Shown: positions 4,468 through 30,661 of the stretch, piece after piece
Position numbering within the stretch: the stretch's first letter is position 1
Layout: the number at the start of each line of letters is the position of its first letter
DNA from: Methylorubrum extorquens
Lineage (GTDB): Bacteria > Pseudomonadota > Alphaproteobacteria > Rhizobiales > Beijerinckiaceae
DNA length: 32,000 bases
NCBI GenBank assembly: GCA_900234795.1
Contig: LT962688.1
Span: 3,270,001-3,302,000, forward strand
Reading direction: 5' to 3'
The notes under the pieces: model-generated
Seen by the model: only the letters and a program-made list of their open reading frames with translations
Databases searched by the model: none
Told to the model about the DNA's origin: nothing
Position numbers and translations under genes: made by a program

Positions 4468-5616
4468 TTAGGGCGCGAGGCTCACCCGGTCCGCCGCCAG
4501 CGCCTCGGCGCGCTTGCGCTCGTCGGGGTTGAGACCGGCGGTCGCTTGATCGAGGCCGGCATCGGCGCGGCCCTGCGAGGCTGCGGTGAGGTTCCAGGCC
4601 GCCGCCTCGACCAGATTCTTGGGCACGCCGCGGCCGGCGACGTAGAGCTTGGCGATCCGGTTCTGGGCGATGGCGTTGCCGCGCTGGGCCGCATGCAGGA
4701 AGTAGCGGGCCGCGCGGGTCTCGTCCTTGGGAACGCCGTCGCCGTTGAACAGCCGGATCGCGAACTCGACCTCGGCACCGAGATCGCCGTTGTCGGCGGC
4801 GCGGCGAAACCATTGCGCCGCCTGGGTCGTGTCCTTGGAGACGCCCTTGCCCTGGAGGTAGAGCACGCCCAGCGCGTATTGCGCGGCGGGGATCTCGGCC
4901 TCGGCCGCCGCCCGGAAATTGGCCAGGGCCGCTGCTAGATCCGCCGGCTTGTCGCTCGCGAGCTGGATCAGGGCGAGATTGTAGCAGGCGCTGGGCTGTC
5001 CCTTGCGGGCCGCCTGTTCGAGCCAGGTCCGGCCAGCCTTCTCGTCCTTGGGTTGCCCGCGCCCATCCATCGCCATCAGGCCGAGGGAGGCCATGGCGTT
5101 GGGATCGTTCTGCACGGCCGCCAGCCGGTACCATTCATGGGCGCGTTTAGGGTCCGGCTTGACCCCGAGGCCCTGGTTGTAGAGTTCGCCGAGCAGCGTC
5201 ATCGCCGCGGCGTCCTTCGGATTCGCCTCGATCCGCTTGGTCGCCTCGCGGAAGGCGGTGACGTAGCGACCGCGCTGATACGCCCCATAAGCCGCGTCCG
5301 CATTCGGGTTCGCCGTCGTGGGCTGCGCCCCCTGGACGTTGGCCGAGTAGGGCGAGGGCAGCTCACGCTTGAGGTCGAACAGGTTCGGCTTGGCCGGCGT
5401 CTGCCCGACAGGCTCCTTCGGGGCGGGCTGCTTCGGGGCTGCGTGCGGAGCGCCGATGTCGAGCGCGAGGACGGCGCAGGCGCTCAGGACCGCGAGGGAC
5501 AGGGTTCCCGTTTGGCGTGCGGCCTTCCCCCTGCGCCCACGCGCCCTTCCCTCCCCCCACAGAGGGAAGAGGGCTTTGAAGGTCACCGCCACGGTCCCGT
5601 CTTCAAAAAAAATCAT
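4468..5616 (-). CDS. Sel1/TPR-like repeat protein, probably exported
   Basis: Repeated A..WY..AA.QG...A...LG..Y..G.GV.KD motifs (Sel1 repeats). A hydrophobic signal-like segment LSLAVLSACAVLALD is present. I chose the start at ATG 5616, which overlaps the upstream stop as ATGA. The exact start is uncertain. Confidence 0.75.
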   Translation of the reverse strand: MIFFEDGTVAVTFKALFPLWGEGRARGRRGKAARQTGTLSLAVLSACAVLALDIGAPHAAPKQPAPKEPVGQTPAKPNLFDLKRELPSPYSANVQGAQPTTANPNADAAYGAYQRGRYVTAFREATKRIEANPKDAAAMTLLGELYNQGLGVKPDPKRAHEWYRLAAVQNDPNAMASLGLMAMDGRGQPKDEKAGRTWLEQAARKGQPSACYNLALIQLASDKPADLAAALANFRAAAEAEIPAAQYALGVLYLQGKGVSKDTTQAAQWFRRAADNGDLGAEVEFAIRLFNGDGVPKDETRAARYFLHAAQRGNAIAQNRIAKLYVAGRGVPKNLVEAAAWNLTAASQGRADAGLDQATAGLNPDERKRAEALAADRVSLAP

Positions 5617-6281
5617 CGTGCCCGGTCGAGCTGCGCCTGTGCGGCCCTGACCCCTTCGGGATCGTCGAGCCACAGGGCGCTTTCCAGCCCGACGAATTCG
5701 GAACCGGTCAGGACGAGCGCCGCGACATCCTCGGCGGAGGTCGCCACCGCGATGCAGGGCGTCTCAAAGATCTCGGCCCACCACGCCGCGCGCTCGCGCA
5801 CCTCCTCGGCATCGGGGGCGACACCGTCGGGGAAGAGGCCGCCGACCATCAGGTAATCGACGCCGGTCTCGCCCGCGACCATCGCCGCGTTGCGCGAGCC
5901 GAGCACGCCGCCCGTCCCGAGGATGCGCCCGTCACGCAGGCGCCCGCGCAGATCGCGCAGCGCCTCTTCGTCCGCACGGTCGAGATGCACCCCATCGGCC
6001 CCGCCGCGAGCCGCGACGGAGACGATATCGCCGGTAAAGCCCGGCACGGAGACGAGCACCGCCGCGCCACGCTCCTGCGCCGGGGGGGCCAGCCGCTTGA
6101 CGAGGGCGACGAGGCTGCGCTCGTCGGACGCCGCCAGCCGCAGGATCACCGCCGCGACATCCCCCGCAGCGCAGGCGGCATCGAGCGCCCGCGCGGTCGC
6201 CTCGGCCTCGGACGCGCCGAGACCATAGGGGGTGAGGAGGGCGAGGCGGGGCCGGGGCGCGGCCGACTCTGATTCAGCCAT
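5613..6281 (-). CDS. thiamine-phosphate synthase family (ThiE-like) protein
   Basis: 222-aa ORF with a TIM-barrel-like pattern (GADGVHL...VDYLMVGGLFP...). It occupies the position downstream of fba where alphaproteobacteria commonly carry a ThiE-like gene. The assignment is weaker than for its neighbours. Confidence 0.6.
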   Translation of the reverse strand: MAESESAAPRPRLALLTPYGLGASEAEATARALDAACAAGDVAAVILRLAASDERSLVALVKRLAPPAQERGAAVLVSVPGFTGDIVSVAARGGADGVHLDRADEEALRDLRGRLRDGRILGTGGVLGSRNAAMVAGETGVDYLMVGGLFPDGVAPDAEEVRERAAWWAEIFETPCIAVATSAEDVAALVLTGSEFVGLESALWLDDPEGVRAAQAQLDRAR

Positions 6282-6287
6282 GACGGA

Positions 6288-7355
6288 TCAGGCGTCGATC
6301 TTCGGGTCGAGCGAGCCGTTGGCGTAGCGCTTCGCCATCTCGGCCACCGAGATCGGGCGGATCTTCGAGCCCTGACCGGCGGTGTTGAACTCCTCGAAGC
6401 GCTGGCGGCACAGCTTGGTCATCGCCTCCATGGCGGGCTTCAGGTACTTGCGCGGATCGAACTCGGAGGGGTTCTCGGTCAGCACCTTACGGATCTGACC
6501 GGTCATCGCCATGCGGTTGTCGGTGTCGATGTTGATCTTGCGCACGCCATGCTTGATGCCGCGCTGGATCTCTTCGACCGGCACGCCCCAAGTCGGCTTC
6601 ATCTCGCCGCCGTACTGGTTGATGATGTCCTGAAGGTCCTGCGGCACCGAGGAGGAGCCGTGCATGACGAGGTGAGTCGTCGGCAGGCGGCGGTGGATCT
6701 CCTCGATCACGCCCATGGCGAGCACGTCGCCGTCGGGCTTGCGCGTGAACTTGTAGGCGCCGTGGCTGGTGCCCATGGCCACCGCCAGCGCATCGACCTT
6801 GGTGGCGGTCACGAACTTCACCGCCTCGTCCGGATCGGTCAGGAGCTGGTCGTGGGAGAGCACGCCTTCCGCGCCGTGGCCGTCCTCGGCCTCGCCCTGG
6901 CCGCTCTCCAGCGAGCCGAGCACGCCGAGTTCGCCCTCGACCGAGACGCCGGCCCAGTGGGCCATCTTGGTGACGTTGCGGGTGATCTCGACGTTGTAAT
7001 TGTAGTCCGCCGGGGTCTTGCCGTCGGCTTTCAGCGAACCGTCCATCATCACCGAGGTGAAGCCGTACTGGATCGCGGTGGCACAGGTGGCTTCGTTGTT
7101 GCCGTGGTCGAGATGCATGCAGACGGGGATGTGCGGGTAGATCTCGACGAGGCCGTCGATGAGCTTGGCCAGCACCACGTCGTTGGCATAGGCGCGGGCA
7201 CCCCGGCTCGCCTGGAGGATCACCGGCGAGTCGGTGGCATCCGCCGCCGCCATGATGGCGAGCCCCTGCTCCATGTTGTTCAGGTTGAACGCGGGCACGC
7301 CGTAGCCGTACTCGGCGGCGTGATCGAGGAGCTGCCGGAGGGTGATGCGTGCCAT
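6288..7355 (-). CDS. fba: class II fructose-bisphosphate aldolase
   Basis: [44 protein letters not shown].. is class II FBA. ATG 7355 is preceded by GAGGA. The track's 712-aa ORF is an artefactual N-terminal extension that runs across pgk. Confidence 0.95.
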
Positions 7356-7507
7356 GGTTCGATCCTCGTGCGATGCGGCCTCAGCCGGGCCTGTCCCTTG
7401 CTGCGGCCTATATAGGTGAGCCAGTGCCGCCAGCCTGCGGCCCGGCGCTGAAAAATGCGCGCGTTTGTCGCCACCGCCGCCCGCGTTGCGGTGCGGCCGA
7501 TCCGGCC

Positions 7508-8710
7508 TCAGCCCTGCGCGCGCAGCGCCTCGACGCCGGGCAGTTCCTTGCCCTCCAGCCATTCGAGGAAGGCGCCGCCCGCGGTGGAGACGTAGGAGAA
7601 GTCCTCGCCCACGCCCGCATGGTTGAGGGCCGCCACCGTGTCGCCGCCGCCGGCGACGCTGACGAGCTGGCCGGCCTTGGTCCGCCGGGCGGCATGCTGG
7701 GCGACCGCGACCGTGCCGGTGTCGAACGGCGTCAGCTCGAAGGCGCCGAGCGGGCCGTTCCAGACCAGCGTCCGGGCTTCCTCGATGGCGCCGTCGATCG
7801 TGGCGATCGAGGAGGCGCCGACATCGAGGATCATCGCGTCGGAGGGCACGGCATCGACCGGAACGGTCTCGTTCTCGGCATTGGCCTTGAACTCGCGGGC
7901 CACCAGCGCATCGACCGGTAGGATGATGGTGCAGTTCTTCTCCTTGGCCGCGGCGAGGATGCGCTTGGCGGTCTCGGCGAGATCCTTCTCGCAGAGCGAC
8001 TTGCCGACATCCTTGCCCTGCGCGTGCAGGAAGGTGTTGGCCATGCCGCCGCCGATCACCAGCATGTCGACCTTGGCGACGAGGTTTTCGAGCAGGTCGA
8101 TCTTGGTCGAGACCTTGGCGCCGCCGACGATGGCGATGACCGGGCGGGCCGGAGCCTCGAGACCCTTGGTCAGGGCATCGAGTTCGGCCTGCATCAGGCG
8201 GCCGGCATAGGCCGGCAGCAGGCGGGCGAGCGCTTCGGTCGAGGCGTGCGCACGGTGGGCGGCGGAGAACGCCTCGTTGACGTAGATGTCGCCATTGGCA
8301 GCCAGCGCCTTGGCGAAGTCGGGATCGTTCTTCTCCTCGCCCGCGTGGTAGCGGGTGTTTTCGAGGAGGATCACGTCGCCGTCCTTGAGCGCCGCAACGG
8401 CTGAAGCAGCGGCCTCGCCGACGCAATCCTCACCGAACGCCACCGGCCGCCCGAGCTTCTCCGACAGCGTCGAGAGGATGGGCTTGAGCGAGTCCTTCGG
8501 GTCCGGCTTGCCCTTGGGGCGGCCGAAATGCGCCAGCAGGATCACCCGCCCGCCCGCATCGGCGATCTCGCGGATCGTCGGCACGACGCGCTCGATCCGG
8601 GTCGCGTCGGTGACGCGTCCGCCCTCCATCGGCACGTTGAGATCGACGCGCAGCAGCACGCGCTTGCCCTGGAGCGGGCCGGCATCGTCGAGGGTGCGGA
8701 AATCCGTCAT
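7508..8710 (-). CDS. pgk: phosphoglycerate kinase
   Basis: 400-aa ORF with [18 protein letters not shown] and [14 protein letters not shown] motifs. Confidence 0.97.
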
Positions 8711-8725
8711 GGCGGCGTCTGATTT

Positions 8726-9232
8726 CTACGGGTTGGAGGCAGAAGGATTGGCGGGCGTCGTCTGGCTCTGGCCGCCGAGGCTGTGCGGCAGCATCCGGTC
8801 AAGGTTCATCCGCTGCACGGCGACCATCAGCGCGACGGTGAGCACGGCGGTGATGATGGCGGTGAGAACGAGGGCGCCGGTGCCGGGCAGGCGGCCGACC
8901 CGGTCGGACAGGGTGCGGACCTCGCTGCGCAGCGACGAGAGGTCGACCTGCCGGGCGGCATCGTTCATCCGGGTCGAGGCCGACTCGACCTTCTCCTCGA
9001 CGCGCGAGAGAAGCGCCTCGGAGCGGGCGTACTTGTCCTCGATGCGCGCGGTCTTGTCCTCGATGCGGGCGAGTTGGTCGGCGTGGTTGACGGCGCCGGA
9101 GGCGGGCAGCGCGGCCTTGCCGGTGCTCGGTGGCGCGACTGCGGGCGTCACGGCGGCGGGCGGCGCGGAGGAGGAAGCGGGAGCGGGGATGAAGTCGGTC
9201 CCGGAAGGCTTGGCCGGCGAGGTCTCGGTCAT
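8726..9232 (-). CDS. hypothetical tail-anchored coiled-coil membrane protein
   Basis: ORF between gap and pgk. It has a Pro/Ala-rich N-terminus, a heptad-like ARIEDKTARIEDKYARSE segment and a C-terminal TM helix ALVLTAIITAVLTVALMVAV. I chose the start at ATG 9232 (MTETSPAK); 9307 is also possible. Confidence 0.55.
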   Translation of the reverse strand: MTETSPAKPSGTDFIPAPASSSAPPAAVTPAVAPPSTGKAALPASGAVNHADQLARIEDKTARIEDKYARSEALLSRVEEKVESASTRMNDAARQVDLSSLRSEVRTLSDRVGRLPGTGALVLTAIITAVLTVALMVAVQRMNLDRMLPHSLGGQSQTTPANPSASNP

Positions 9233-9374
9233 CGCGTACGCACCTTGAAGCTTCGGCGAGCCGGGCTCGCCTGAGTGTCTCTCACGAAACGTCCGCTTCA
9301 CCGTCACGGCAGACGAGAGGCGGTCAGTCAGCGAGAGTTACGTGAGGGACTCTATGGGAACTCGAAGACAATCG

Positions 9375-9405
9375 GGGGCGGCCGGCCCGAACGGCCGGCC
9401 GCCCC
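9375..9405 (-). terminator. GC-rich hairpin downstream of gap (terminator candidate)
   Basis: 13-bp perfect stem GGGGCGGCCGGCC/GGCCGGCCGCCCC with a 5-nt loop, about 20 nt after the gap stop. The trailing sequence is only weakly U-rich. Confidence 0.4.
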
Positions 9406-9426
9406 TCGTCAGGCGTAGCTAGCGCG

Positions 9427-10434
9427 TCAGATCAGCTTGGCCATGGCCACGGCGGTGTCGGCCATGCGGTTCGAGAAGCCCCACTCGTTGTCGTACCAGG
9501 ACAGGATGCGCACAAAGGTGCCGTCCATGACCTTGGTCTGGTCGAGGTGGAAGGTGGACGAGTGCGGATCGTGGTTGAAGTCGATCGACACGTTCGGCCG
9601 GTCGGTGACGCCGAGCACGCCCTTGAGCGGGCCGGCGGCGGCCGCCTTGATCGCGTCGTTGATCTCCTGGACCGAGGTCGCGCGCTTGGCCGTGAACACG
9701 AGATCGACCGCCGAGACGTTCGGGGTCGGCACGCGGATCGCGGTGCCGTCGAGCTTGCCCTTCAGCTCCGGCAGGACGAGGCCGACGGCCTTGGCCGCGC
9801 CGGTCGAGGTCGGGATCATCGAGAGCGCCGCGGCGCGGGCCCGATAGAGATCCTTGTGCATCTGGTCGAGCGACGGCTGGTCGTTGGTGTAGGAGTGGAT
9901 CGTGGTCATGAAACCGCGCTCGATCCCCACCGTGTCGTTCAGCACCTGTGCCACCGGCGCAAGGCAGTTCGTGGTGCAGGAGGCGTTGGACACGACGAGG
10001 TGCTCGCCCGTGAGCTTGTCGTGGTTCACGCCGTACACGACCGTGAGGTCGGCGCCGTCGGCGGGCGCCGAGACGAGCACGCGCTTGGCGCCGGCGTCGA
10101 GATGGGCCTTCGCCTTGTCCTTCGAGGTGAAGATGCCGGTGCATTCCAGCGCGATGTCGACACCGAGCTCGCGGTGCGGCAGCTCGGCCGGGTTGCGCAC
10201 GGCGGTGACGCGGATGCGCTTGCCGTTGATGACGATGTCGTCGCCCTCGACCGCGACCTCGGCCGGGAAGCGGCCATGGACGGAATCGTAGCGCAGCAGG
10301 TGGGCGTTGGTCTCGACCGGGCCGAGATCGTTGATCGCGACGACCTCGATATCGGTGCGGCCGGCTTCGACGATGGCGCGCAGCACGTTACGGCCGATGC
10401 GCCCAAACCCGTTGATGGCAACCTTGACGGTCAC
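9427..10434 (-). CDS. gap: type I glyceraldehyde-3-phosphate dehydrogenase
   Basis: [41 protein letters not shown] start at 10434 with AAGGAG 7 nt upstream. The track's 513-aa ORF is an upstream extension. Confidence 0.95.
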
Positions 10435-10896
10435 GGCGTGACTCCTTCGAAATGGGGCGCACCCGCGCGCCGATGGAACAACGGTCGGGCCAGCCGGCGG
10501 CTTTCGCGCGCGGTGCCCGATGAAGGTGAGACCGCTCCAAGCGGGGCGGGACTGAACGGGGGATGAACCGTGAGGCGGCCCGCAGACGTCCGGTCGGCGG
10601 ACGGTCTGATCGGGGAGCCGGAGAAAGTCACGGTCTTGAGAATCCGTAGGGCGGCCCCGCGCCGGGGGATCGGGGCCGGGCGCCGGCTCTCTAACATGGC
10701 GCCCGAGGCTGTCAAAGATCGGGGGCAAGCCTGTGAATTGTCTGGAATTTCGAATGCGCTTGGCTGAAACCTGTCCGCAGCGAGGGTTCGGAGTACCGCG
10801 AAAGTCCTTCCGCCGCCGGCCGTTTGCGTTCTGGCCGTCGCGGCGCGGGACGCGTTTCGTGGCCGACTCTGATGGGACGGCAACCGACGGGTAGAT

Positions 10897-11217
10897 ATGG
10901 CGCGAGCGGATACGAAGGCAGCGCAGGGCAGAAGGCAGGACGGCGTCGGGCTGGAAGAGGCGCTGCACCGGCTCGACACGGCGCTGGCGCTGCTCGAGAC
11001 GGCGGTGGCCCGCAAGCTCGAAGCCGAGCGCAGCCGCGGCGATCGGGAGACGGAGTTCGCCCTGCTGGAGGAGGACCGGGTTCGGCTCGCCGCCGAACTC
11101 GATGCGGCGGGCGCGCGGCTCGCCCGGATGAATTCCACCACCGGCGAGGTCAACCGCCGCCTCGATCGCGCCATCGAGACGGTGGAAGACGTGCTGTCCG
11201 GCCCGTCCGGGCGCTGA
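10897..11217 (+). CDS. DUF4164-family coiled-coil protein
   Basis: 106-aa coiled-coil ORF directly upstream of zapA, the usual position of DUF4164 in alphaproteobacteria. Recognised by context and composition. Confidence 0.7.
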
Positions 11218-11240
11218 GTTCGAGTCAGGTTCAAACGCGG

Positions 11241-11612
11241 ATGCCGCACGTCAACGTTACCATCGCGGGCAAGAGCTACCGGATGGCCTGCGGCCCCGGC
11301 GAGGAAGACCATCTCGCGGCGTTGGCCAAGAGCTTCGACGACCGTGTCACCGAGATGCGCGGCACCTTCGGTGAGATCGGCGACATGCGCCTGCACGTCA
11401 TGGCCTCGCTGACCCTGGCCGATGAACTGCTCGAAGCGCGCCGCCGCATCGCCGACCTGGAGCAGCACGCGGCTCAGGGCGCGGCCGATCAGGCGCGGCT
11501 CGCGAGCGGTGTCGGCATCGCCGCCGAGCGGATCGACCGGCTGGCGCGGGCGCTGTCTGGCCAGCCGGGCGGCGCTCCCGGCGGCAAGGGCGAGGCCGAG
11601 CGCGGCGGCTGA
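11241..11612 (+). CDS. zapA: cell division protein ZapA
   Basis: [46 protein letters not shown] is the ZapA N-terminal domain plus a coiled coil. It is embedded in a longer artefactual track ORF (10824..11612). Confidence 0.85.
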
Positions 11613-11650
11613 CCCGTCCAACGTCGGCCGGATCGTCGCGCCGGCTTCGA

Positions 11651-11848
11651 ATTTCTGAGGCATGACGCGATCGCCCCCTGGCGCCGGGACGCGAGCGCGT
11701 CTATCTCTGGCGGGCGGGGCTGCAGAGTTCGTCAGGAGAACTTTCCCCGGGGCCTTATCGACTCCCCAAGGAGCTGTCACTGGCCTCGTCCGTGGACTTG
11801 GCCAACACGGCGCCCACCTACACTGTAGGTTTCCCGGGATCGACACTC
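11651..11848 (+). ncRNA. ssrS: probable 6S RNA (boundaries approximate, +/- 20 nt)
   Basis: A 247-nt non-coding gap between zapA and the 5-formyl-THF cyclo-ligase gene is the conserved proteobacterial ssrS location. The segment starts AUUUCUGAGG... like E. coli 6S and contains several stems, for example AGAGUUC-GUCAGGA-GAACUUU, GGGG..CCCC, and CCGGGA (11684-9) pairing with UCCCGG (11832-7). I could not fold it rigorously. Confidence 0.5.
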
Positions 11849-11859
11849 CAACGGCTCAA

Positions 11860-12450
11860 GTGGCTCCGCACTCTTCTCCCGAACGCTCCCTGAAGGCGAG
11901 CCTCCGCGCCGAGGCACTCAGCCGCCGCGACGCGCTCTCGCCCGAGGCCCGCAAGGCCGGCTCGCTGCGCGCCGCCGAGACCATCGCGGCCATTCCCGAG
12001 CTGGCCGAGGCGCCGCTGGTCGGCGCCTTCTGGCCGATCCGCTCCGAGATCGACCCGCGCCCGCTGATCGAGCGCCTGTTCGCCCGCGGCCAGCGGGTCG
12101 CGCTGCCGAAGGTCACCAAGCAAGGCCTCGTCTTCCGCGAATGGCGCGCGGGCGAGGAACTGGTGAGCGGCGGCTTCGGCCTCAGCGAGCCCCGCGACGA
12201 CCTTCCGCCGCTCGACCCCACCGCCCTGATCGTGCCGCTCGCCGCCTTCGACCGCGCGGGCCAGCGCATCGGCTACGGCGCGGGCTATTACGATCAGGCG
12301 ATCGAGCGGCTCTCGAAGAACGGGCCGGTGCTGACCGTCGGCATCGCCTTCTCCGTGCAGGAGATCGCGCGCGTCCCGGCCGAGCCGCATGACCGCCCGC
12401 TCGACCATCTCGTGACCGAGACCGGCCCCGTGCCGCTCCGGCAAAGCTAG
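11860..12450 (+). CDS. 5-formyltetrahydrofolate cyclo-ligase
   Basis: SLKASLRAEALSRRDAL..VGAFWPIRSEIDP..VALPKV..GLSEP..IVPLAAFDRAGQRIGYGAGYYD are family motifs. I chose GTG 11860 as the start, giving 196 aa, so that the ORF does not run across the putative 6S RNA. Confidence 0.85.
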   Translation: MAPHSSPERSLKASLRAEALSRRDALSPEARKAGSLRAAETIAAIPELAEAPLVGAFWPIRSEIDPRPLIERLFARGQRVALPKVTKQGLVFREWRAGEELVSGGFGLSEPRDDLPPLDPTALIVPLAAFDRAGQRIGYGAGYYDQAIERLSKNGPVLTVGIAFSVQEIARVPAEPHDRPLDHLVTETGPVPLRQS

Positions 12451-12466
12451 ACCTTTCATTTGACTC

Positions 12467-12512
12467 GCATCGGCTCTTTCGAGACGCCGGCGACCACCTT
12501 TCGGGCCGATGC
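12467..12512 (+). repeat. palindromic intergenic repeat, copy B
   Basis: GCATCGGCTCTTTCGAGACGCCGGCGACCACCTTTCGGGCCGATGC. It ends 3 nt before the ATG of the next gene. Confidence 0.8.
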
Positions 12513-12515
12513 TGC

Positions 12516-13337
12516 ATGCGCATCCTCTTCCTCGGCGACATTGTCGGACGGCCCGGCCGCCACGCCGTCACCGAACGTCTGCCGTCCTTACGCGAGCGCT
12601 GGCGTCTCGATTGCGTCGTCATCAACGGCGAGAACGCGGCCGGCGGTTTCGGCATCACCGAATCGATCTGCGACGAGATCCTTCAGGCCGGCGCCGACGC
12701 GGTGACCCTCGGCAACCACTCGTTCGACCAGCGCGAGGCGCTCGTCTTCATCGCCCGCCAGCCGCGTCTGATCCGCCCGGCGAACTACCCGCCGGGCACG
12801 CCGGGCCGCGGTGCCGCCGTGATCGAGACGCCCCGCGGAGCGCGCGTCCTCGTCGTCAACGTGATGGGCCGGATCTACCTCGACCCGCTCGACGACCCCT
12901 TCGCTGCGGCCGACCGGGAACTCGACGCCTGCCCGCTCGGCGCGGCGGCGGATGCGGTGATCGTCGACATGCACGCCGAGGCCACGAGCGAGAAGCAGGC
13001 CATGGGGCATTTCCTCGACGGCCGCGCCACCCTCGTCGTCGGCACCCACACCCATGCGCCGACCGCCGATCACCGCATCCTACCGGGCGGCACCGCCTAC
13101 CTGTCGGATGCGGGGATGTGCGGCGACTACGATTCCGTGCTCGGTATGCAGAAGGACGAGCCCGTGCGCCGCTTCCTTCAGAAGACGCCGGGCTCACGGC
13201 TCGAGGCAGCGACCGGCGAGGGCACCTTGTGCGGCATCGCGGTCGAGACCGACGACGCGACGGGGCTGGCCCGGCGGGTCTGGGCCGTGCGCCTCGGACC
13301 GCATCTGGAAGAGACCTGGCCGCGCGAGTGGGATTGA
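12516..13337 (+). CDS. YmdB-like (TIGR00282) metallophosphoesterase
   Basis: MRILFLGDIVGRPGR..VINGENAAGGFGIT..TLGNH..VDMHAEATSEK..GTHTHAPTAD are hallmarks of the YmdB 2',3'-cyclic-nucleotide phosphodiesterase family. Confidence 0.9.
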   Translation: MRILFLGDIVGRPGRHAVTERLPSLRERWRLDCVVINGENAAGGFGITESICDEILQAGADAVTLGNHSFDQREALVFIARQPRLIRPANYPPGTPGRGAAVIETPRGARVLVVNVMGRIYLDPLDDPFAAADRELDACPLGAAADAVIVDMHAEATSEKQAMGHFLDGRATLVVGTHTHAPTADHRILPGGTAYLSDAGMCGDYDSVLGMQKDEPVRRFLQKTPGSRLEAATGEGTLCGIAVETDDATGLARRVWAVRLGPHLEETWPREWD

Positions 13338-13489
13338 GGCCGCTCGCGTCGCGGCCCCGGGCCAGCCACGCTCGAATGCTCGTTGAACGATACGGCACCG
13401 CGACTTGATCGCGGCAGGCCGAGCCGCCACAGTGCCGCCGGTTTCGACACAGCGGTGCCGCCGGTCCCGGCGTCAGGCCCAACACGAGT

Positions 13490-14495
13490 ATGGACCCGAT
13501 GGCGGCCCGTTCCGCGTCCCTCGACACGCCTCCCCTCGCCAAGCCCGGCATGACGCTGGTGCGGATGCTGGTGTTCCTGGCGCTCGCGGGCTTCCTCGCC
13601 TTCGTCCTCTACAAGCAGATCACCCCGGCCTTCCTCGCCAATCCAGGCCTGAACGGGCTGATCCTCGGCGTGCTGCTGATCGCGGTGCTGCTCGCCTTCG
13701 GGCAGGTAACGCGGCTGTTTCGCGAGGTGCGCTACGTCAACGCGGTCGCCGCGGGGCAGACCCCGAAGGACCGGCCGGCCCTGCTCGCCCCGCTGCTGCC
13801 CGCCATCGCAGCCCGGCGCGATGGGATGACGCTGTCGAGCACCCGCGCGCATCTCGACACCACCGCCGTGCGGCTCGACGAGGGCCGCGAGATCCTGCGC
13901 TACATCGCCGGCATCCTGATCCTGCTCGGCCTGCTCGGCACGTTCTGGGGCCTGATCGAGACGCTCTCGGCGGTGGGCTCGGTGATCGGCGGCATGCGCG
14001 GCGGCGGCGATGCGGCGGTGATGTTCGATGAACTCAAGAGCGGGCTCGCGGTGCCGCTCTCGGGCATCGGCCTCGCCTTCTCCGCCTCGCTGTTCGGCCT
14101 CGCCTCCTCTTTGATCGTCGGCTTCCTCGACCTTCAGACGGGTCAGGCCCATTCGCGTTTCCACAACGAGCTGGAGGATTGGCTCGTCTCCGGCGAGGAG
14201 CAGGCGCTCGCCACGACCACCGTCGCGGCGCGCCCGGCGCCGGAGCACGACCCCGCCATCGCCCGCGAGTTGCAGGCCGCGGTAGACCGCCTGAGCGGCG
14301 TCATCGCCGAGGGCGCCGGGGGGCCGGGGCGCAACCCAGGCCATGACCAACCTCGCCGAGGGCATCCAAGGGCTCGTGCAGCACATGCGCGCCGAGCAGC
14401 AGATGATCCGCGACTGGGTCGAGGCCCAGGCCGCCCGGGAGCGGGAGCTGAAGCAGGTGCTCGAACGGCTCGCGCGCGAGAAGGTCGGCTCCTAA
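13490..14495 (+). pseudogene. MotA/TolQ/ExbB-family proton-channel protein, reading frame interrupted (needs removal of 1 nt, most simply one G of the G6 run at 14318-14323); genuine frameshift or sequence error
   Basis: The N-terminal 275 aa, in the frame of 13490, include LLGLLGTFWGLIETL (the MotA/ExbB signature). The C-terminal part ATQAMTNLAEGIQGLVQHMRAEQQMIRDWVEAQAARERELKQVLERLAREKVGS* is in the next frame and ends at TAA 14493-14495. The span is 1006 nt, which is 335 codons plus 1 nt. Confidence 0.7.
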
Positions 14496-15511
14496 ATGGC
14501 CTCTGCCCGTGCCCGCTCGCAGCGCAGCCTGAACGTCTGGCCGGGCTATGTCGACGCGCTTGCGACACTCCTGCTGGCCGTCGTCTTCCTGCTCACCGTC
14601 TTCGTGGTGGGGCAGTTCTTCCTCTCTCGCAGGAGTTGACCGGGCGCGACGCGGTCCTGACCCGCCTCAACCGCCAGATCGCCGACCTCACCGACCTGCT
14701 GGCGCTGGAGCGCTCCAGCCGCCGCGCCCAGGAAGAGGCGGCCTCCGGCCTGCGCAACACCCTGACGGCCACGGAAGCCGAGCGCGACCGGCTCCGGGCG
14801 CTCACCGATGCCAGCGAGGCGGCCCAGGGCAAGAGCGCCGACGTCGATGCCCAGCTCGCGGCCGAGCGCGGCGCGACGCAGCGGGCCCAGAATCAGGTCG
14901 AGCTTCTGAACGAGCAGATCCGCGCCCTGCGCCGACAACTCGCGGCGCTCGAAGACGCGCTGGCGGCCTCCGAATCCCGCGACCGGGAAAGCCAAGCCCG
15001 CATCGCCGAACTCGGCAGCCGCCTCAACGTGGCGCTCGCCCAGCGGGTGCAGGAACTCGCCCGCTACCGCTCCGACTTCTTCGGGCGGCTGCGTCAGGTC
15101 ATCGGCAGCCGCACCGATGTCCGCATCGTCGGCGACCGTTTCGTGCTGCAATCCGAGGTTCTGTTCGCCGCCGGCTCCGCCGCGCTGAAGCCCGAGGCCG
15201 GGCCGGAACTGGACCGGATCGCCGGGGCGATCCTCGATATCGCGCGGGAGATCCCCGCCGACATCCCCTGGGTGCTGCGGGTGGACGGTCACACCGATGC
15301 GCGCCCGATCCAGTCGGCGCAATTCCCGTCGAACTGGGCGCTGTCGGCGTCGCGTGCCATCGCGGTAGTGCAGTATCTGCGGAGCAAGGGCCTGCCGCCG
15401 CAGCGGCTCCTGGCCGGCGCCTTCGGCGAGTTCCAGCCGCTCGATTCGGGGACGAGCGAGGAGGCCTATTCCCGAAATCGCCGGATCGAGATGAAGCTGA
15501 CGGAGCGGTGA
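14496..15511 (+). pseudogene. OmpA/MotB-family peptidoglycan-binding protein with long coiled coil, reading frame interrupted in the CT repeat at 14621-14628; genuine frameshift or sequence error
   Basis: ATG 14496 follows the upstream stop as TAAATG. It encodes MASARARSQRSLNVWPGYVDALATLLLAVVFLLTVFVVGQFFLS (a MotB-type TM helix with Asp) and then stops at 14637-14639. The continuation QELTGRDAVLTRLNRQIADL...(coiled coil)...GHTD..SNWALSASRA..NRRIE (OmpA domain) is in another frame. The span is 1016 nt, which is 338 codons plus 2 nt. Confidence 0.7.
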
Positions 15512-15563
15512 GCCGCGCGCCACGGCGGCTTGCGGAAATCACCATACGGCCTAATCTTCGGCC

Positions 15564-15803
15564 ATGACGGTCGAGGCACTCTACATCCTGCGCCGACAGG
15601 CACCGCGATCCGCTTTCAAGGATCTCGACCGTATCGTGCTGACGGCCGACGTGACGACTGATGACGGCGACACGGTCGCCGCCGGCACCGAGGGAACGAT
15701 CGTCGGCGTGTGGCGCGACGGCGCGGCCTACGAGGTGGAATTCACGACACCTGTCGCCGGGCTGGCAACGGTACTGCCGAGCGCCCTGGCCCCGAAGCCT
15801 TGA
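15564..15803 (+). CDS. DUF4926 domain protein
   Basis: 79-aa ORF. The pattern LDRIVLTADV..GDTVAAGTEGTIVGVWRDGAAYEVEF matches my recollection of DUF4926. Confidence 0.75.
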   Translation: MTVEALYILRRQAPRSAFKDLDRIVLTADVTTDDGDTVAAGTEGTIVGVWRDGAAYEVEFTTPVAGLATVLPSALAPKP

Positions 15804-16150
15804 GCAGGTCGACACGATCGCCGACAGCCTTTGCCATCAGTTCAGAGAAGATCAGCGGCTATCTCTTGAACCCAGCGCATCCCGACGGTGGATCGAAGGC
15901 GCGCTTTTTGTCGATGTTCGGCTTCTCCGGCGATGCGCCCGAGATTCTGGCGCAAGCACTCCTCGCCCACGCCAAGCCGGAGCACTTGGCGAAAGAGGGA
16001 CTGACGCCCCTCGGGGACGTCAAGCTCATCTACGAGGGCTCGCTTCAGGCGCCCAATGGCCGCTCGCCCTTCGTGCGGACGGTTTGGCGCCTTCTGCCCG
16101 ACGACACGGCTCATTTCGTGACGGCAGTGCCCTTGAAGGAGCGTCGCTAG
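15800..16150 (+). CDS. DUF6883 domain protein (start codon uncertain; TTG 15800 proposed)
   Basis: KISGYLLNPAHPDGGSKARFLSMFGF...GRSPFVRTVWRL...FVTAVP matches the DUF6883 pattern (KL..Y.LN..HP.GG.KA.FF...GF ... TVW ... TA.P). No ATG exists between the upstream stop and the domain. TTG at 15800 overlaps the DUF4926 stop as TTGA. The track's GTG 15710 start would overlap DUF4926 by 94 nt. Confidence 0.65.
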   Translation: MSRSTRSPTAFAISSEKISGYLLNPAHPDGGSKARFLSMFGFSGDAPEILAQALLAHAKPEHLAKEGLTPLGDVKLIYEGSLQAPNGRSPFVRTVWRLLPDDTAHFVTAVPLKERR

Positions 16151-16165
16151 GCGCCTGTTTTTGCG

Positions 16166-16207
16166 GCGTCTTTACCGAAAGCCGGTGATTACCCTTCGGG
16201 GCGATGC
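16166..16207 (+). repeat. palindromic intergenic repeat, copy E (more diverged)
   Basis: GCGTCTTTACCGAAAGCCGGTGATTACCCTTCGGGGCGATGC, sitting between two convergent stop codons (16150 and 16209). Confidence 0.65.
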
Positions 16208-16208
16208 C

Positions 16209-17216
16209 CTAAAACTCGCTCCGATAGGCGAACAGCCCCGGCACGCCGCCGGTCATCACGAACAGCACCGCCGCGCCGCGCTCGTACAGGCCGGCGCGCA
16301 CGTCGTGGAGCAGCCCGGCGAACGCCTTGCCGCTGTAGACGGGGTCGAGCAGCAGTCCTTCCGTGCGGGCCATCAGCCGCACCGCCTCGCGCATGCCCTC
16401 GGTCGGGATGCCGTAGCCCGGCCCGCGATGGGAGCCGTCCACGAGGATGGCGTCGTCGGAGAGCGTCTGACTGGCATCGATCAGCGCGAGGGTGTCGCGG
16501 GCCCTGGCCAGCGTTGCGGCCGTCGCCTCGGGCTCGGGGGCGAGCACCGTGTAGGATTGGGCCAGATGCGGGTCGCGGCCGGCGGCGGCGAGACCGGCGG
16601 CGAGCCCCGCATGGGTGCCGGAGCTGCCGTTCGGCACGACGATGCGGGCGAAGGCGAGGCCGAGATTGGCCGCCTGCTCCAGGATCTCGGCGGCGCACGC
16701 CGCGTAGCCGAGACAGCCGAGCGGGCTCGACCCGCCGGAGGGGAAGACGTGGACGCGCCGCCCCTCCGCCCTCAACTCCTCCGCCCGCGCCTCGGCCTGC
16801 GCCAGCGAAGCCGCCTCGCCCGGCAGCAGGTGCACATGGGCGCCGAACAGATCCTGCAACAGCCGGTTGCCGTTGGCTGTGTAGTCGGCGTCCTCCCGCG
16901 GGACGCTGCGGGTGAGGAACAGTTCGCAGGCGAGCCCCATCCGCGCGGCGGAGGCGGCGGTGAGCCGGGCGTGGTTCGATTGCAGCGCACCGACGGTGAT
17001 CACCGTGTCGGCCCGCTCCGCCAGCGCCTGACCGAGCAGGAATTCGAGCTTGCGCAGCTTGTTGCCGCCCAAACCCACCGGGCCGATGTCGTCGCGCTTC
17101 ACGAACAGGCGGACGCCGTTCAGCTCGGGCCCGAGATGGGTCGAGAGACGGTCGAGGGAGCGGATCGGCGTCGGCCCGTCGGTGAGCGCGACACGGGGGA
17201 AGCGGGTGAGAACCAT
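16209..17216 (-). CDS. D-cysteine desulfhydrase / ACC deaminase family PLP enzyme
   Basis: 335-aa ORF with RDDIGPVGLGGNKLRKLEFLL (PLP-lysine motif), GALQSNHAR and DPVYSGKAF. Confidence 0.88.
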   Translation of the reverse strand: MVLTRFPRVALTDGPTPIRSLDRLSTHLGPELNGVRLFVKRDDIGPVGLGGNKLRKLEFLLGQALAERADTVITVGALQSNHARLTAASAARMGLACELFLTRSVPREDADYTANGNRLLQDLFGAHVHLLPGEAASLAQAEARAEELRAEGRRVHVFPSGGSSPLGCLGYAACAAEILEQAANLGLAFARIVVPNGSSGTHAGLAAGLAAAGRDPHLAQSYTVLAPEPEATAATLARARDTLALIDASQTLSDDAILVDGSHRGPGYGIPTEGMREAVRLMARTEGLLLDPVYSGKAFAGLLHDVRAGLYERGAAVLFVMTGGVPGLFAYRSEF

Positions 17217-17321
17217 CGATCGCCTTCGTGAGCGTTAGTGTCACTCACGAAACTCCCGCTGCGCCGTCGTGCCCAGAACGGAGACGATCGGTGATCGGGA
17301 GTTTTGTGAGGCACTCTTAAA

Positions 17322-17367
17322 GCATCCCCCTGATCCGAGAGCCGGAAACCGCCTTTCGGGAGGATGC
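17322..17367 (+). repeat. palindromic intergenic repeat, copy C
   Basis: GCATCCCCCTGATCCGAGAGCCGGAAACCGCCTTTCGGGAGGATGC, immediately adjacent to the stop of the ABC exporter gene. Confidence 0.8.
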
Positions 17368-17368
17368 T

Positions 17369-19228
17369 CTATTCCGCGGCGTGTTTCGGGCGCGGGTCGC
17401 GCGCCCGGGCGCTGTCATCGAAGCTGTCGGCGAATTGCAGGCTCGCGAGCTGCGCGTAGAGGGCGCCGCGGGCAAGCAGGCTTTCGTGCGTGCCCTCCTC
17501 GACGATCTTGCCGCCATCGAAGACGAGGATGCGGTCGGCCGCGCGGATGGTTGCGAGCCGGTGGGCGATCACCAGCGTGGTGCGGCCCTGCATCAGCCGG
17601 TCGAGGGCGTTCTGCACCGCGCGCTCGCTCTCGGCATCGAGCGCCGAGGTCGCCTCGTCGAGGAGAAGGACCGGCGCATCCTTCAGGATGGCGCGGGCGA
17701 TGGCGATGCGCTGGCGCTGCCCGCCCGAGAGCGTGGTGCCGCGCTCGCCGAGCATTGTCGCGTAGCCCTGAGGCAGGGCACGGACGAAGCCATCGGCGTT
17801 GGCGAGGCGCGCCGCCTCCTCGACCTCCGCCTCGCTGGCGCCGGGGCGCCCGTAGCGGATGTTCTCCAGAACCGTGCCGGAGAACACCACCGGGTCCTGC
17901 GGCACCAGGGAGAGGCGCGCGCGCAGGGCGTCGAGATCGGCCTGCGGCAGCGGCACGCCGTCGATCGTCACGCGGCCCTCGTCGGGGTCGTAGAAGCGCA
18001 GCAGCAATTGCAGCACCGTGGTCTTGCCGGCCCCCGAGGGACCGACGAGGGCGATGCGCTCGCCGGGCGCCGCGGTGAAGGAGATGCCGTCCAGCGCCGC
18101 GTGTTCGGGCCGGGTCGGGTAGCGGAAGCGCACCGCCTCGAACGCGACCGCGCCACGGGCCGGGCTCGGCAGCGCGACCGGGTGCTCGGGGGACTTGATC
18201 GCCGGCTCGGCGGCCAGGATCTCGCCGAGCCGCTCGGCGGCGCCCGCGGCCTGGGCGAGTTCGCCGTAGACCTCGGAGAGCTGGCCCAGCGCGCTGGCGC
18301 CGAACACGGCGTAGAGCACGAATTGCGAGAGCTGGCCGGCGCTGGTGGTGCCCGCGAGCACACCCTTAGCGCCGTACCACATCACGCCGACGACCGAGGC
18401 CGAGATCAGGAAGATCGCCACGCCGGTGAGCAGGGCGCGGGCCGTGATCGAGACCCGCGCCGCCCGGTAGGCATTCTCCGAAGCTTGCGCGAAGCGCTCG
18501 GCGGTGGCGCGGCCCATGCCGAAAGCCTGCATGGTGCGGACCGCCCCGACGGCTTCCGCCGCGTAGGCCGAGGCGTCGGCGAGCCGGTCCTGCGCCGCGC
18601 GCGAGCGCCGCCGTACGCCGCGGCCCGACAGGATCAGCGGAAACACGATGAGCGGAATCGCGGCGAGCACGAGGATCGACAGGCCGGGGCTCGTCCAGAC
18701 CATCATCACCACGGCGCCGACGAACAGGAACAGGTTGCGCAGCAGGATCGAGATCGAGACCCCGAACACCGCCTTGACCTGCGTAGCGTCCGCCGTGAGC
18801 CGCGAGACGATCTCGCCTGATTGCGACTTGTCGAAGAAGGTCGGGTCGAGGCTCGTCAGCCGTGCGAACACGGCCGAGCGCAGATCCGCGACGACGCGCT
18901 CGCCCAGCGTCACCACCGAAAAGTAGCGGCCCGCACTCGACACCGCGAGCACCGCCACCACCACGAGCAGCGCCAGGAAGTAGGAATTGATGAGGGCCTG
19001 CCCCTCCGGCGAGAAGCCGTGGTCGATCACCCGGCGAATCGCAATCGGCACGACGAGCGTCGCGCCCGACGCCGCGATCAACGAAATCAGCGCCGCGAGG
19101 ATGCGGCCCCGGTAGCGGCTGGCGAAGGGAATCAGCGGCTTGAGAGCTCCGAGCGGCGCCCGCCCCCGGAGAGCCGCCTGCGGATCGTCTCCTGCGCCGG
19201 ACGACGCATCACGCTTGCGGGCCATCAT
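17369..19228 (-). CDS. ABCB-type exporter, fused permease/ATPase (MsbA/ATM1-like)
   Basis: Six-TM N-terminal domain followed by Walker A GPSGAGKTT, signature LSGGQRQRIAIARA and Walker B LLLDEATSALD. The start is ambiguous (ATG 19228, 19225 or 19291). Confidence 0.9.
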   Translation of the reverse strand: MMARKRDASSGAGDDPQAALRGRAPLGALKPLIPFASRYRGRILAALISLIAASGATLVVPIAIRRVIDHGFSPEGQALINSYFLALLVVVAVLAVSSAGRYFSVVTLGERVVADLRSAVFARLTSLDPTFFDKSQSGEIVSRLTADATQVKAVFGVSISILLRNLFLFVGAVVMMVWTSPGLSILVLAAIPLIVFPLILSGRGVRRRSRAAQDRLADASAYAAEAVGAVRTMQAFGMGRATAERFAQASENAYRAARVSITARALLTGVAIFLISASVVGVMWYGAKGVLAGTTSAGQLSQFVLYAVFGASALGQLSEVYGELAQAAGAAERLGEILAAEPAIKSPEHPVALPSPARGAVAFEAVRFRYPTRPEHAALDGISFTAAPGERIALVGPSGAGKTTVLQLLLRFYDPDEGRVTIDGVPLPQADLDALRARLSLVPQDPVVFSGTVLENIRYGRPGASEAEVEEAARLANADGFVRALPQGYATMLGERGTTLSGGQRQRIAIARAILKDAPVLLLDEATSALDAESERAVQNALDRLMQGRTTLVIAHRLATIRAADRILVFDGGKIVEEGTHESLLARGALYAQLASLQFADSFDDSARARDPRPKHAAE

Positions 19229-23940: not shown

Positions 23941-23986
23941 GCATCATCTCCTTCCGAAAACCGGCCACCACCTTTCGGGACGATGC
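23941..23986 (+). repeat. palindromic intergenic repeat, copy D
   Basis: GCATCATCTCCTTCCGAAAACCGGCCACCACCTTTCGGGACGATGC, located between yidC and engB. Confidence 0.8.
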
Positions 23987-24093
23987 TCGAGCGGGGAAGA
24001 AGCCGGCAGCCGAGCGGAATGCGCCGCCGCGCATCGGCCGGCATCCCCCCATCCCTCCCCTTGCCCGCAAGGGGGGAAGAAGCGCGCAGCCTC

Positions 24094-24753
24094 ATGACCG
24101 ACGACCCGACAGACGCTCACTCCCCCGAACTGCTCGAAGCCGGCCGCCTGCTGTTTGCCGGTAGTGCAGACTTCGCCACCGCCGCCCCGGCCCTCGGGGC
24201 GTTGCCGCCGATGGAAGGTGTCGAGATTGCCTTTGCCGGCCGCTCCAACGTCGGCAAATCGAGCCTCGTCAACGCCCTGACCGGGCGCAACACGCTCGCG
24301 CGGACCTCGCACACGCCGGGGCGCACCCAGCAGCTCAACTTCTTCCGGATCGGCGAGCGCCTGACCCTCGTCGACATGCCGGGCTACGGCTATGCCGCGG
24401 TGGAAAAGGCCAAGGTCGAGGCCTGGACCAAGCTGATTCACGCCTACCTCAAGGGCCGGTCGAACCTCGCGCGCGTCTACCTGCTGATCGATTCCCGGCA
24501 CGGCCTCAAGGAGATCGACACCGATCTGCTCGACGGGCTCGACAAGGCGGCGGTCTCCTATCAGATCGTGCTGACCAAGGGCGACGCGCTGAAGAAGGCC
24601 GAGATCGAGAAGCGCATCGCCGGCATCCATGCCGCTTTGGCCAAGCGCCCGGCGGCCTATCCCGAAGTGCTGCTCACCTCCAGCCGCGACGACCGCGGCG
24701 TGGCGGAACTGCGCGCCAGCATCGCCCGGCTGCTGCAGGAACGCGGCGCGTGA
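24094..24753 (+). CDS. engB: ribosome biogenesis GTP-binding protein YihA/EngB
   Basis: G1 motif AGRSNVGKSSLVNAL, G3 motif DMPGYG and G4 motif TKGD. It occupies the conserved position after yidC. I chose the start at ATG 24094 (MTDDPTD). Confidence 0.9.
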   Translation: MTDDPTDAHSPELLEAGRLLFAGSADFATAAPALGALPPMEGVEIAFAGRSNVGKSSLVNALTGRNTLARTSHTPGRTQQLNFFRIGERLTLVDMPGYGYAAVEKAKVEAWTKLIHAYLKGRSNLARVYLLIDSRHGLKEIDTDLLDGLDKAAVSYQIVLTKGDALKKAEIEKRIAGIHAALAKRPAAYPEVLLTSSRDDRGVAELRASIARLLQERGA

Positions 24754-25121
24754 CCGGCCTCGACCGCGTTCTTGCCGCGCTTGCAGCGCTCGCCGGCGGG
24801 CTCGGCGTCGCGGCGAGTGCCGCCGCAGCGCATACCAGCGGCGGCGAGACGCTGAAGACGGCGGCGCAGTTCCTGCTGTTCCATGCTCCCGCCGTGCTGG
24901 CACTCACGGGCCTGACCGCGACCGGCTTCGTCCGCAGCGGCCTCGCCCGCCTCGCGGCGGCGGCGCTGCTGGTCGGCCTCGCGCTGTTCTCGGGCGATCT
25001 TGCTCTCCGCGCGCTGACGGGCACGCCCCTGTTTCCGATGGCAGCGCCCAGCGGCGGCGTGGTGCTGATGGCCGGCTGGCTGCTCGCGGCGATCGCTGTG
25101 CTGGTGCCCGCGCGGCGCTGA
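24750..25121 (+). CDS. DUF423 (YgdD/TMEM256-like) small membrane protein
   Basis: 123-aa protein with four hydrophobic helices and an AAAAH...FLLFHA pattern. The GTG start overlaps the engB stop as GTGA. Confidence 0.75.
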   Translation: MTGLDRVLAALAALAGGLGVAASAAAAHTSGGETLKTAAQFLLFHAPAVLALTGLTATGFVRSGLARLAAAALLVGLALFSGDLALRALTGTPLFPMAAPSGGVVLMAGWLLAAIAVLVPARR

Positions 25122-25391
25122 CCCCCTCGATTCAGACAAACCTGTGTGAGGGATGCGTGCGCCGATCCTGGCTCCCGCTCGCCGCCTGCCTCGACGAAGC
25201 CTTCCCGGCGGAGACCTTCTCACCCCCTCGCCGCGAGCCTCTGGTCGGAGAAGTGCACCGACCATGAGAGCGGTCCTCTGCGCCCCGTCCGCTTCACGAT
25301 TCTCGCCACCGGCGGCGACGAGGCAGGCGGCCTGAGGGATGCCGACCTCATCGTGGCGGGCGGCCCGGCGCAGGGCCGCCCGTAGTCGCTT

Positions 25392-26786: not shown

Positions 26787-26958
26787 GGCCCGCTCCTCGG
26801 TCCGCGTGCGGGGCTCTGGGGGCGCATCCATCGGCGTCGGCTCCTCATCCGCGGCACGAGCGGCCGCGGTTAGGCCCTGTTAGAGAGGGAGCCGAGGCCG
26901 GGTTCAAGCCGGTCCGGTGATGAAACCTCAGCGCTCACAGAAATCGAGGGTGCCTGAC

Positions 26959-27633
26959 TCAACCAGCCGACACGCGCAGGAATTCCAGCGCCGGGCCCTG
27001 CGCCTGCGAAAAGACGCCCGCCGTCAGCGCGTTGCCGAAGACCGCACCCGTGTCGAGATTGGTGCGGAAGCGGCGGCAATCCGGCCCGCCGCGGGTCTGC
27101 GGCGTGTGGCCGTGGACGATGTGGCGGCCGAAATCATAATCCTCGGAGAGGAACGGCTCGCGGATCCAGAGCCGGTTGTGAGGGTCGGGGTCCGGCACCT
27201 CCCCCTCGGGGCGAAAACCAGCATGGACGTACCAGCGCTGCGCATCCTCGTGCAGGGTCGGCAAGGCCTCGATCCAGTCGAGCATCTCGCCGGGCAGCTC
27301 TTCCGGCCCCGAGACGCCGAACGACGTCAGGGTCTTGGCGCCGCCATTATAGACCCAATGGTCGAGGGCGCCGGGCTCGCGCAGACTCTTCAGCAGCATC
27401 TCCTCGTGGTTGCCCATCAGGCAGACCACGTCCTCTGGCTCGCGCCACTGCAGGCGCCGCAGGGTCTCGATCACCCGTGCGCTGTCGGGCCCGCGATCGA
27501 TGTAGTCGCCGAGGAAGACCAGCTTCTTCGCGCGGGTCCCTGCATGGGCCTCGATGCGTTCCAGCAGGCGGTCGAGCAGGTCGGCGCAGCCGTGGATATC
27601 GCCGATGGCGTAGGTGATCGTCTCGGCAGTCAT
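26959..27633 (-). CDS. PPP-family metallophosphoesterase (serine/threonine phosphatase, PrpA/ApaH-like)
   Basis: Carries the GDIHGC, GDYIDRGPDS, GNHE and VHGHT motifs. Confidence 0.85.
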   Translation of the reverse strand: MTAETITYAIGDIHGCADLLDRLLERIEAHAGTRAKKLVFLGDYIDRGPDSARVIETLRRLQWREPEDVVCLMGNHEEMLLKSLREPGALDHWVYNGGAKTLTSFGVSGPEELPGEMLDWIEALPTLHEDAQRWYVHAGFRPEGEVPDPDPHNRLWIREPFLSEDYDFGRHIVHGHTPQTRGGPDCRRFRTNLDTGAVFGNALTAGVFSQAQGPALEFLRVSAG

Positions 27634-27809
27634 CCGCTCGTTGTCGATGGGAAATCGCTGCAGCGCAAGACGAGGGCGCTCCGGGCCCAGGGCAACCGAT
27701 CAAAGCCGCGCGAGTAGCCTCGCGGCGCGTTGACGCGGCCGCTCCGAAGCGGCCGCGACCGAGGCGGCCCTGGCGCGCTTTCCCGCGCCGGGGCCCTTCG
27801 TTCACCGGA

Positions 27810-30434
<2,625 letters not shown>

Positions 30435-30661
30435 GCGTGTTGCCCTTCCCCGGATCGAAGATCGTCCGCCCGCTTGCGCGGCACGGAGCCTCCGATGCGT
30501 TGTCCCGCGGGGTGAGCCCCACCGGGACACCGGCGCTTTATTGTGAGCCGCCGGTAGGGATGATCTGGTGTTGCGTATACGTGACACAAGAGGGAGAGGG
30601 CGCCCAAAACGCATCCCAGGCGGGCATTCGGACCAAGCTTGCGCGGCCGATGCGTGGCCGT

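Follow-up and report, generated by a model that had tools for sequence, protein, structure and literature searches.

A fused MotA-MotB-like reading frame in the Methylorubrum extorquens TK 0001 assembly very probably reflects two short insertion errors

We analyzed a stretch of 32,000 nucleotides (nt), hereafter called the window (contig LT962688.1 of assembly GCA_900234795.1, positions 3,270,001 to 3,302,000 of the forward strand), which comes from the chromosome of Methylorubrum extorquens TK 0001 (LT962688). The window contains an open reading frame (ORF) of 673 amino acids (aa; 13490..15511) with an Arg/Pro/Gly-rich middle part, and the version of this ORF that starts at 13499 was deposited as SOR30111.1 under the name 'flagellar motor protein MotB (modular protein) [Methylorubrum extorquens]'. 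We found that the ORF is composed of a MotA/ExbB-like gene, approximately 102 codons in the wrong frame and then a MotB/OmpA-like gene. In our judgment, the fused ORF is very probably the result of residual long-read insertion errors at two sites and not biology. Both insertions were unique to the TK 0001 assembly and absent from Illumina assemblies of the same lineage, and their removal restored the exact conserved proteins. We infer that the insertions arose during sequencing or assembly and not in the sequenced clone. The coordinates of the features are summarized in Table 1.

Table 1. Features of the fused reading frame, the underlying gene pair and the related insertions in the window.
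Feature	Position	Strand	Accession or basis
Fused coding sequence (CDS) as deposited, 670 aa	13499..15511	+	SOR30111.1 / UniRef100_A0A2N9ARY2
MotA/TolQ/ExbB-like gene, 331 aa once the extra G is removed	13499..14495	+	PF01618; identity to relatives
G6 tract with one spurious G (G5 in every other assembly), first disruption (+1)	14318..14323	+	Alignment gap at 14318
Segment misread by the fused ORF, giving the Arg/Pro/Gly-rich 'linker'	14319..14621	+	Frame translations, variable sites
TAAATG stop-start junction of both genes	14493..14498	+	Sequence
MotB/OmpA-like 'peptidoglycan-binding protein' gene, 337 aa once the extra CT is removed	14496..15511	+	NF006545, PF00691
CCTCTCTC tract with one spurious CT, second disruption (+2)	14621..14628	+	Alignment gaps at 14622-14623
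Second pair of window-only single-base insertions, C4 to C5 each	25122..25223	.	Absent from L089, L090, L097-L106

A preliminary description of the window had placed a GGGGGG run at 14318-14323, an CCTCTCTC repeat at 14621-14628 and a TAAATG junction at 14493-14498 within the 673-aa ORF with its Arg/Pro/Gly-rich middle, and had proposed that shifts of +1 in the G run and +2 in the CT repeat join a MotA-like gene to a MotB-like gene. These coordinates and readings held, and correction of both sites yielded the proteins of the relatives exactly. The description had also named G5 and (CT)2 as the tracts to be expected in related genomes, and these were the tracts that we found in the M. extorquens-group assemblies. 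In particular, a gap was present at 14318 in every alignment with the loci L081-L096 and L107-L114, and the G tract read GCCGGGGGCCGGGG in L082, L087, L088, L094 and L096. The second site was CCTCTC in every other M. extorquens-group assembly, with gaps at 14622-14623 in all alignments. In other species, both sites were non-repetitive, reading for example GGGGGCGGCCGG at the G site and CTGTCG at the CT site.

In its true frame, the segment between the two sites encodes the C-terminus of the MotA-like protein and the N-terminus of the MotB-like protein with its transmembrane helix; the adjacent frame reads ..ATQAMTNLAEGIQGLVQHMRAEQQMIRDWVEAQ..EKVGS, followed by the stop codon and then MASARARSQRSLNVWPGYVDALATLLLAVVFLLTVFVVGQFFLS. 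The out-of-frame linker of the fused ORF includes GPGRNPGHDQPR. As deposited, the last 58 codons of the MotA-like gene (14319-14492) and its stop codon (14493-14495) are in the +1 frame relative to its start. Upon deletion of the G and the CT in silico, the locus encoded a 331/334-aa MotA-like protein and a 337-aa MotB-like protein, both identical to the gene products of L087, and the two genes abut in the same way in relatives (6984..7979 and 7980..8993 in L081). The distribution of variable sites among eight close relatives was examined along the ORF. In the flanks, variable sites fell at codon position 3 of the ORF in 20/26 and 19/21 cases, and within 14319-14621 they fell at ORF position 1 in 10/11, which corresponds to position 3 of the adjacent frame. 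In this segment, it is therefore the adjacent frame that is under purifying selection.

That the wrong frame stayed open over approximately 102 codons is unremarkable and was to be expected, because 35% of all stretches of 102 codons, taken over the six frames of the window (69% G+C), were free of stop codons. Likewise, two small indels can easily add up to +3 by chance, as +1 and +2 do here.

Other assemblies were fetched via exact look-ups of the neighboring window proteins. All of the other M. extorquens-group assemblies obtained in this way, among them nine other chromosome-scale NCBI records with contigs of 5.4-6.0 Mb, lacked both insertions and contained genes of 331 and 337 aa. CP021054.1, FP103042.2 (strain DM4), CP019322.1, AP025942.1 and CP073633.1 are among the assemblies compared. 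The closest comparison was provided by short-read (Logan) Illumina contigs from more than 15 runs, including ERR2660577, ERR2831462/67/504 and ERR28498xx. These contigs carried the private T of the window at 14561, and together with the accession ranges, which fit PRJEB27428/29054/29055 (named in PMC6595629), the sequence identity and this shared private single-nucleotide polymorphism (SNP) led us to infer that the runs represent TK 0001 or its derivatives. Over the approximately 20 kb that could be compared (5561-17716 and 23963-32000), the same-lineage contigs differed from the window in only five places, namely one substitution (11769) and four insertion events in the window: +G at 14318 (G5 to G6), +CT at 14622-23 ((CT)2 to (CT)3), and +C at 25122 and +C at 25223 (both C4 to C5), all of them in short repeats.

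The two +C insertions were absent from all other strains compared; among the loci used here (L089, L090 and L097-L106) are Illumina contigs of the same lineage that show 0 substitutions over stretches of up to 8 kb. The insertions are located just past the stop codon of a DUF423 gene and inside a doubtful 75-aa ORF with a GTG start, which was called in relatives (L099, 1194..1421) and showed no Pfam match. By comparison, the neighboring strains CP021054.1 and LMNP01000031.1 differed from the window by 11-15 substitutions and had only 0-2 indels of their own. A ratio of four private indels to one private substitution, with all of the indels being short-repeat insertions and two of them non-coding, is a signature of long-read consensus error and is unlike natural divergence. 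The insertions were absent from independent accurate-read assemblies of what we take to be the same strain, and similar private indels occurred elsewhere in the window.

The single substitution at 11769, an A inside the 6S RNA gene, was unique to the window, with G in the loci of 19 relatives; it may be another consensus error or a private SNP. We also observed that CP021054.1 (L089/L108) had one G fewer than the window and all other relatives at the G runs at 6082 and 10721, and that at 6082 an aberrant 364-aa gene call replaced the thiamine-phosphate synthase (TMP-TENI) and Sel1 genes. CP021054.1 probably has homopolymer errors of its own.

The published methods for the TK 0001 genome describe a single 5.71-Mb contig obtained from Canu-corrected MinION reads by smartdenovo assembly and MiSeq polishing (PMC5824006). 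The annotation table of TK 0001 (supplement of PMC6595629) lists 'fCDS, fragment of ... (part 1/2)' in 138 rows and contains the term 'modular protein' 32 times, although rows recur across sheets and these figures are not counts of distinct genes; split exbB, modA and gspD are among the rows. This pattern suggests assembly-wide indel errors, which would be expected to produce it, and frameshift artefacts may also have raised the number of CDSs reported for the 5.71-Mb genome (6,160). The locus tags in the same table read 'TK0001_v2', a hint that the sequence was revised later. MotA, MotB and OmpA are not mentioned in the main text of the 2019 evolution paper on TK 0001 (PMC6595629), and its supplements list only unrelated MotB/OmpA genes; the paper neither confirms nor contradicts the artefact directly.

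The exact 670-aa sequence of the fused protein occurred on one contig only (5,715,512 bp) in the protein collection, in which the start variants of 673, 653 and 648 aa had no record, and a protein look-up of the truncated adjacent-frame ORFs of 50 aa and 47 aa returned no record anywhere. An exact look-up in the gene-position index for the starts 13490, 13499 and 13550 found no product of 673, 670 or 653 aa, and the source chromosome is apparently outside this index. The origin of the window was evident from its neighboring proteins, as YmdB, the DUF4926 protein and the pyridoxal phosphate (PLP) enzyme were exactly SOR30110.1, SOR30112.1 and SOR30114.1.

To place the locus in a wider context, we scanned GTDB species genomes and obtained 80 loci from Methylobacterium, Methylorubrum, Microvirga, Bosea, Bradyrhizobium and other genera of Hyphomicrobiales. 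An unbroken motA-like gene was located directly upstream of the motB-like gene in 78/80 loci, ending 0-189 nt before its start, and the relative frame of the two genes differed from locus to locus. The two exceptions, L047 (CAWCCG010000020.1) and L074 (CAVPDZ010000018.1), were 'MFD' metagenome-assembled genomes in which motA was split. The transmembrane motif WPG[YF]VDAL was present in 80/80 loci and was absent from the fused ORF as deposited. Other 'fused' proteins in a collection of 5.8 billion proteins (P0001, P0003, P0004 and P0007) were singletons with out-of-frame, R/P/G-rich linkers, and P0001 was found on L047. It appears that this fusion artefact has arisen at the locus repeatedly, also in other assemblies of high G+C content.

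On the explanation that we favor, the locus would be an ordinary operon in which a gene for a 331-aa MotA/TolQ/ExbB-like inner-membrane protein is followed by TAAATG and by the gene for a 337-aa MotB-like protein of the PRK09039 family. Two insertions, of one G in a G5 run and of one CT in a (CT)2 repeat, would have survived the Illumina polishing of the MinION assembly. With the wrong frame open at 69% G+C and +1 and +2 adding up to +3, gene callers would then have seen one ORF of 670-673 aa, which was annotated as a 'modular' MotB, and TK 0001 itself would almost certainly make both normal proteins. Several points weigh against this explanation. The insertion errors were deduced from a comparison of assemblies, and the attribution of the ERR runs to TK 0001 or its derivatives is likewise a deduction from sequence identity, the shared SNP and accession ranges. 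In addition, polishing of the assembly with approximately 134x Illumina coverage should clear most indels, and the 2019 paper reports few mutations common to all evolved isolates, with these sites not listed (PMC6595629). Given the 'TK0001_v2' tags, that paper may have mapped its reads to a revised reference.

Of the four causes offered in the preliminary description, the evidence singles out sequencing or assembly error and speaks against a decaying locus, slipped-strand switching and an expressed fusion. The closest competitor is that both insertions are real slippage mutations in the sequenced TK 0001 clone, which would make the locus a recent loss-of-function allele of a stator-like pair. 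Replication slippage is possible at both sites, which are short repeats, selection could be the reason why one operon was hit twice within 305 nt, and the insertions persisted through Illumina polishing. One could speculate that a first frameshift left a 47-aa MotB transmembrane stub and an unplugged, leaky channel, and that this selected for the second lesion in motA. We nevertheless regard a real double mutation as unlikely. Same-lineage assemblies from many runs were free of either insertion, the fused protein occurred on one contig only, and two more private homopolymer insertions were found in non-coding DNA of the window, where no such story of selection applies. Furthermore, four private indels against one substitution reverse the normal pattern of bacterial divergence, and many genes are fragmented genome-wide in the annotation. 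That the TK 0001 stock carries a natural null or neomorphic-fusion allele, with the second lesion perhaps a suppressor of a leaky channel of MotA and truncated MotB, is a shade less probable still.

Far less credible are phase variation, with the G run and the CT repeat serving as contingency tracts, and programmed ribosomal frameshifting at these sites, for which the location of both lesions in simple repeats is the sole support. The tracts are very short (5-6 G and 2-3 CT); G5 and (CT)2 were invariant in every other M. extorquens-group assembly, showing none of the strain-to-strain variation by which a contingency locus is recognized, and in other species the sites were not repeats at all. 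For programmed frameshifting, two successive shifts of the ribosome (-1, then -2) would be required, and a conserved signal for them was absent. We give similarly little credence to a genuine, expressed MotA-MotB fusion of 670 aa, as annotated. Although the ORF is open, bears the annotation 'modular protein' and contains both Pfam domains in detectable form (PF01618 with 27.0 bits), its linker is out-of-frame sequence with selection on the other frame, and the invariant transmembrane/Asp motif of MotB is deleted. An OmpA domain without the MotB transmembrane helix would probably stay in the cytoplasm. Moreover, no orthologue was fused, since 78/80 loci had separate genes, the other two were frameshifted metagenome-assembled genomes, and the 'fusions' in the database were singletons. 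A fusion and linker that are conserved, with the linker evolving in the ORF frame, were not found: the fused form was confined to one contig, and the M. extorquens-group genomes contained two genes.

With both insertions removed, the window pair is no different from other pairs of a PRK09039-family protein and an upstream MotA/TolQ/ExbB partner. The corrected MotA-like protein is P0168, found on 62 contigs and including ACS40145.1 of strain AM1. It belongs to the MotA/TolQ/ExbB proton channel family (PF01618), the 334-aa form scoring 24.7 bits against a gathering score of 22.9; the margin is small, and the matches of relatives were flagged 'weak'. A PDB sequence search with this protein returned only insignificant matches, the best being 8vvn_C at E = 0.07. 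The corrected 337-aa MotB-like protein is a member of NCBIfam NF006545 (PRK09039.1-4, equivalog), with a score of 478.8 bits at a cut-off of 372, and the match runs from end to end (residues 1-337 on profile positions 1-342 of 342). It also matched the OmpA-like peptidoglycan-binding domain (PF00691) over residues 222-328 with 59.9 bits (gathering score 27.2). The overall layout of the protein comprises an N-terminal transmembrane helix with WPGYVDAL, a long coiled coil and a C-terminal OmpA domain; the single N-terminal helix with its conserved Asp, WPGYVDALATLLL in the adjacent frame, is that of a MotB/ExbD/TolR-type partner.

The pair was located downstream of DUF4164, zapA, 6S RNA, 5-formyl-tetrahydrofolate (5-formyl-THF) cyclo-ligase and ymdB genes, both in the window and in all of the fetched genomes of the M. 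extorquens group. The real locus is a conserved, non-flagellar, stator-like two-gene operon of Hyphomicrobiales. As in MotAB, TolQR and ExbBD, a MotA-type pentamer presumably conducts protons and a MotB-type dimer, anchored to peptidoglycan, is presumably coupled to this flow; family membership suggests this role for the pair. A literature search for 'PRK09039' retrieved nothing on the function of the pair.

Several features were observed in the vicinity of the pair. The 6S RNA gene (Rfam RF00013, 71.7 bits; 11714-11870, +) lies between zapA and the 5-formyl-THF cyclo-ligase gene in the classic zapA-ssrS-ygfA synteny. Between the motB-like gene and a D-cysteine desulfhydrase-like gene, there is a strain-variable islet of DUF4926 (79 aa) and DUF6883 genes (15564-16150, +), which was present in TK 0001, CP021054.1, LMNP01 and CP019322.1 and absent from DM4 (FP103042.2) and several others; it could be a toxin-antitoxin-like pair. 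Farther downstream, the window contains a match to the alphaproteobacterial small RNA BjrC1505 (Rfam RF02356; 20821-20967, -) with 68.7 bits against a gathering score of 50.

We compared the pair with the systems that it most resembles. Like the flagellar stator MotA/MotB, it combines a MotA/ExbB-type channel with a single-pass partner that has a transmembrane Asp and an OmpA-like domain. In contrast to classical MotB, the window protein has a coiled coil of approximately 150 residues, and the neighbors of the pair are cell-division and housekeeping genes rather than flagellar genes. The deposited name of a flagellar MotB was also unsupported by the profiles, as the scores for NF005831 (MotB), NF006541 (MotD) and NF005382 (MotS) were 61.1 vs 301, 99.8 vs 283 and 93.4 vs 264, respectively. 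Weak profile matches to the Zorya proteins ZorA and ZorB were found (PADLOC ZorA1, 38 bits; ZorB3, 81.5 bits; NCBIfam ZorA_2, 18.8 bits; and the above match to PDB 8vvn_C). However, they cover only the shared channel and OmpA cores, the window pair does not have the long ZorA tail, and it is a core pair conserved across the order. An assignment to Zorya ZorAB was rejected, as the ZorA_2 score was far below its cut-off of 100, the PADLOC matches were partial and the neighbors were ymdB, DUF4926 and the PLP enzyme instead of zorC/zorD-type genes.

The errors proposed here resemble known residual indel errors of nanopore long reads in that they are homopolymer or short-repeat insertions that occur in a single MinION-based assembly and not in short-read assemblies of the same lineage, with more of the same kind nearby and many 'fragment' and 'modular' CDSs in the annotation. 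They are unusual in that two errors sum to +3. A single long ORF results where two fragments would be usual, and the errors are thereby hidden from ORF callers. SOR30111.1 / UniRef100_A0A2N9ARY2 is very probably an artefact and unfit to support the existence of MotA-MotB fusions or modular stators. Short-repeat insertion errors remain in LT962688, about four in the approximately 20 kb that were comparable, and frameshifted, fragmented or 'modular' genes of TK 0001 need a short-read check before they are interpreted biologically. The fused ORF is almost certainly not a real biological feature, and its biological importance is small. Independent of the artefact, the gene pair, which is conserved across Hyphomicrobiales beside ymdB, 6S RNA and zapA, may deserve study.

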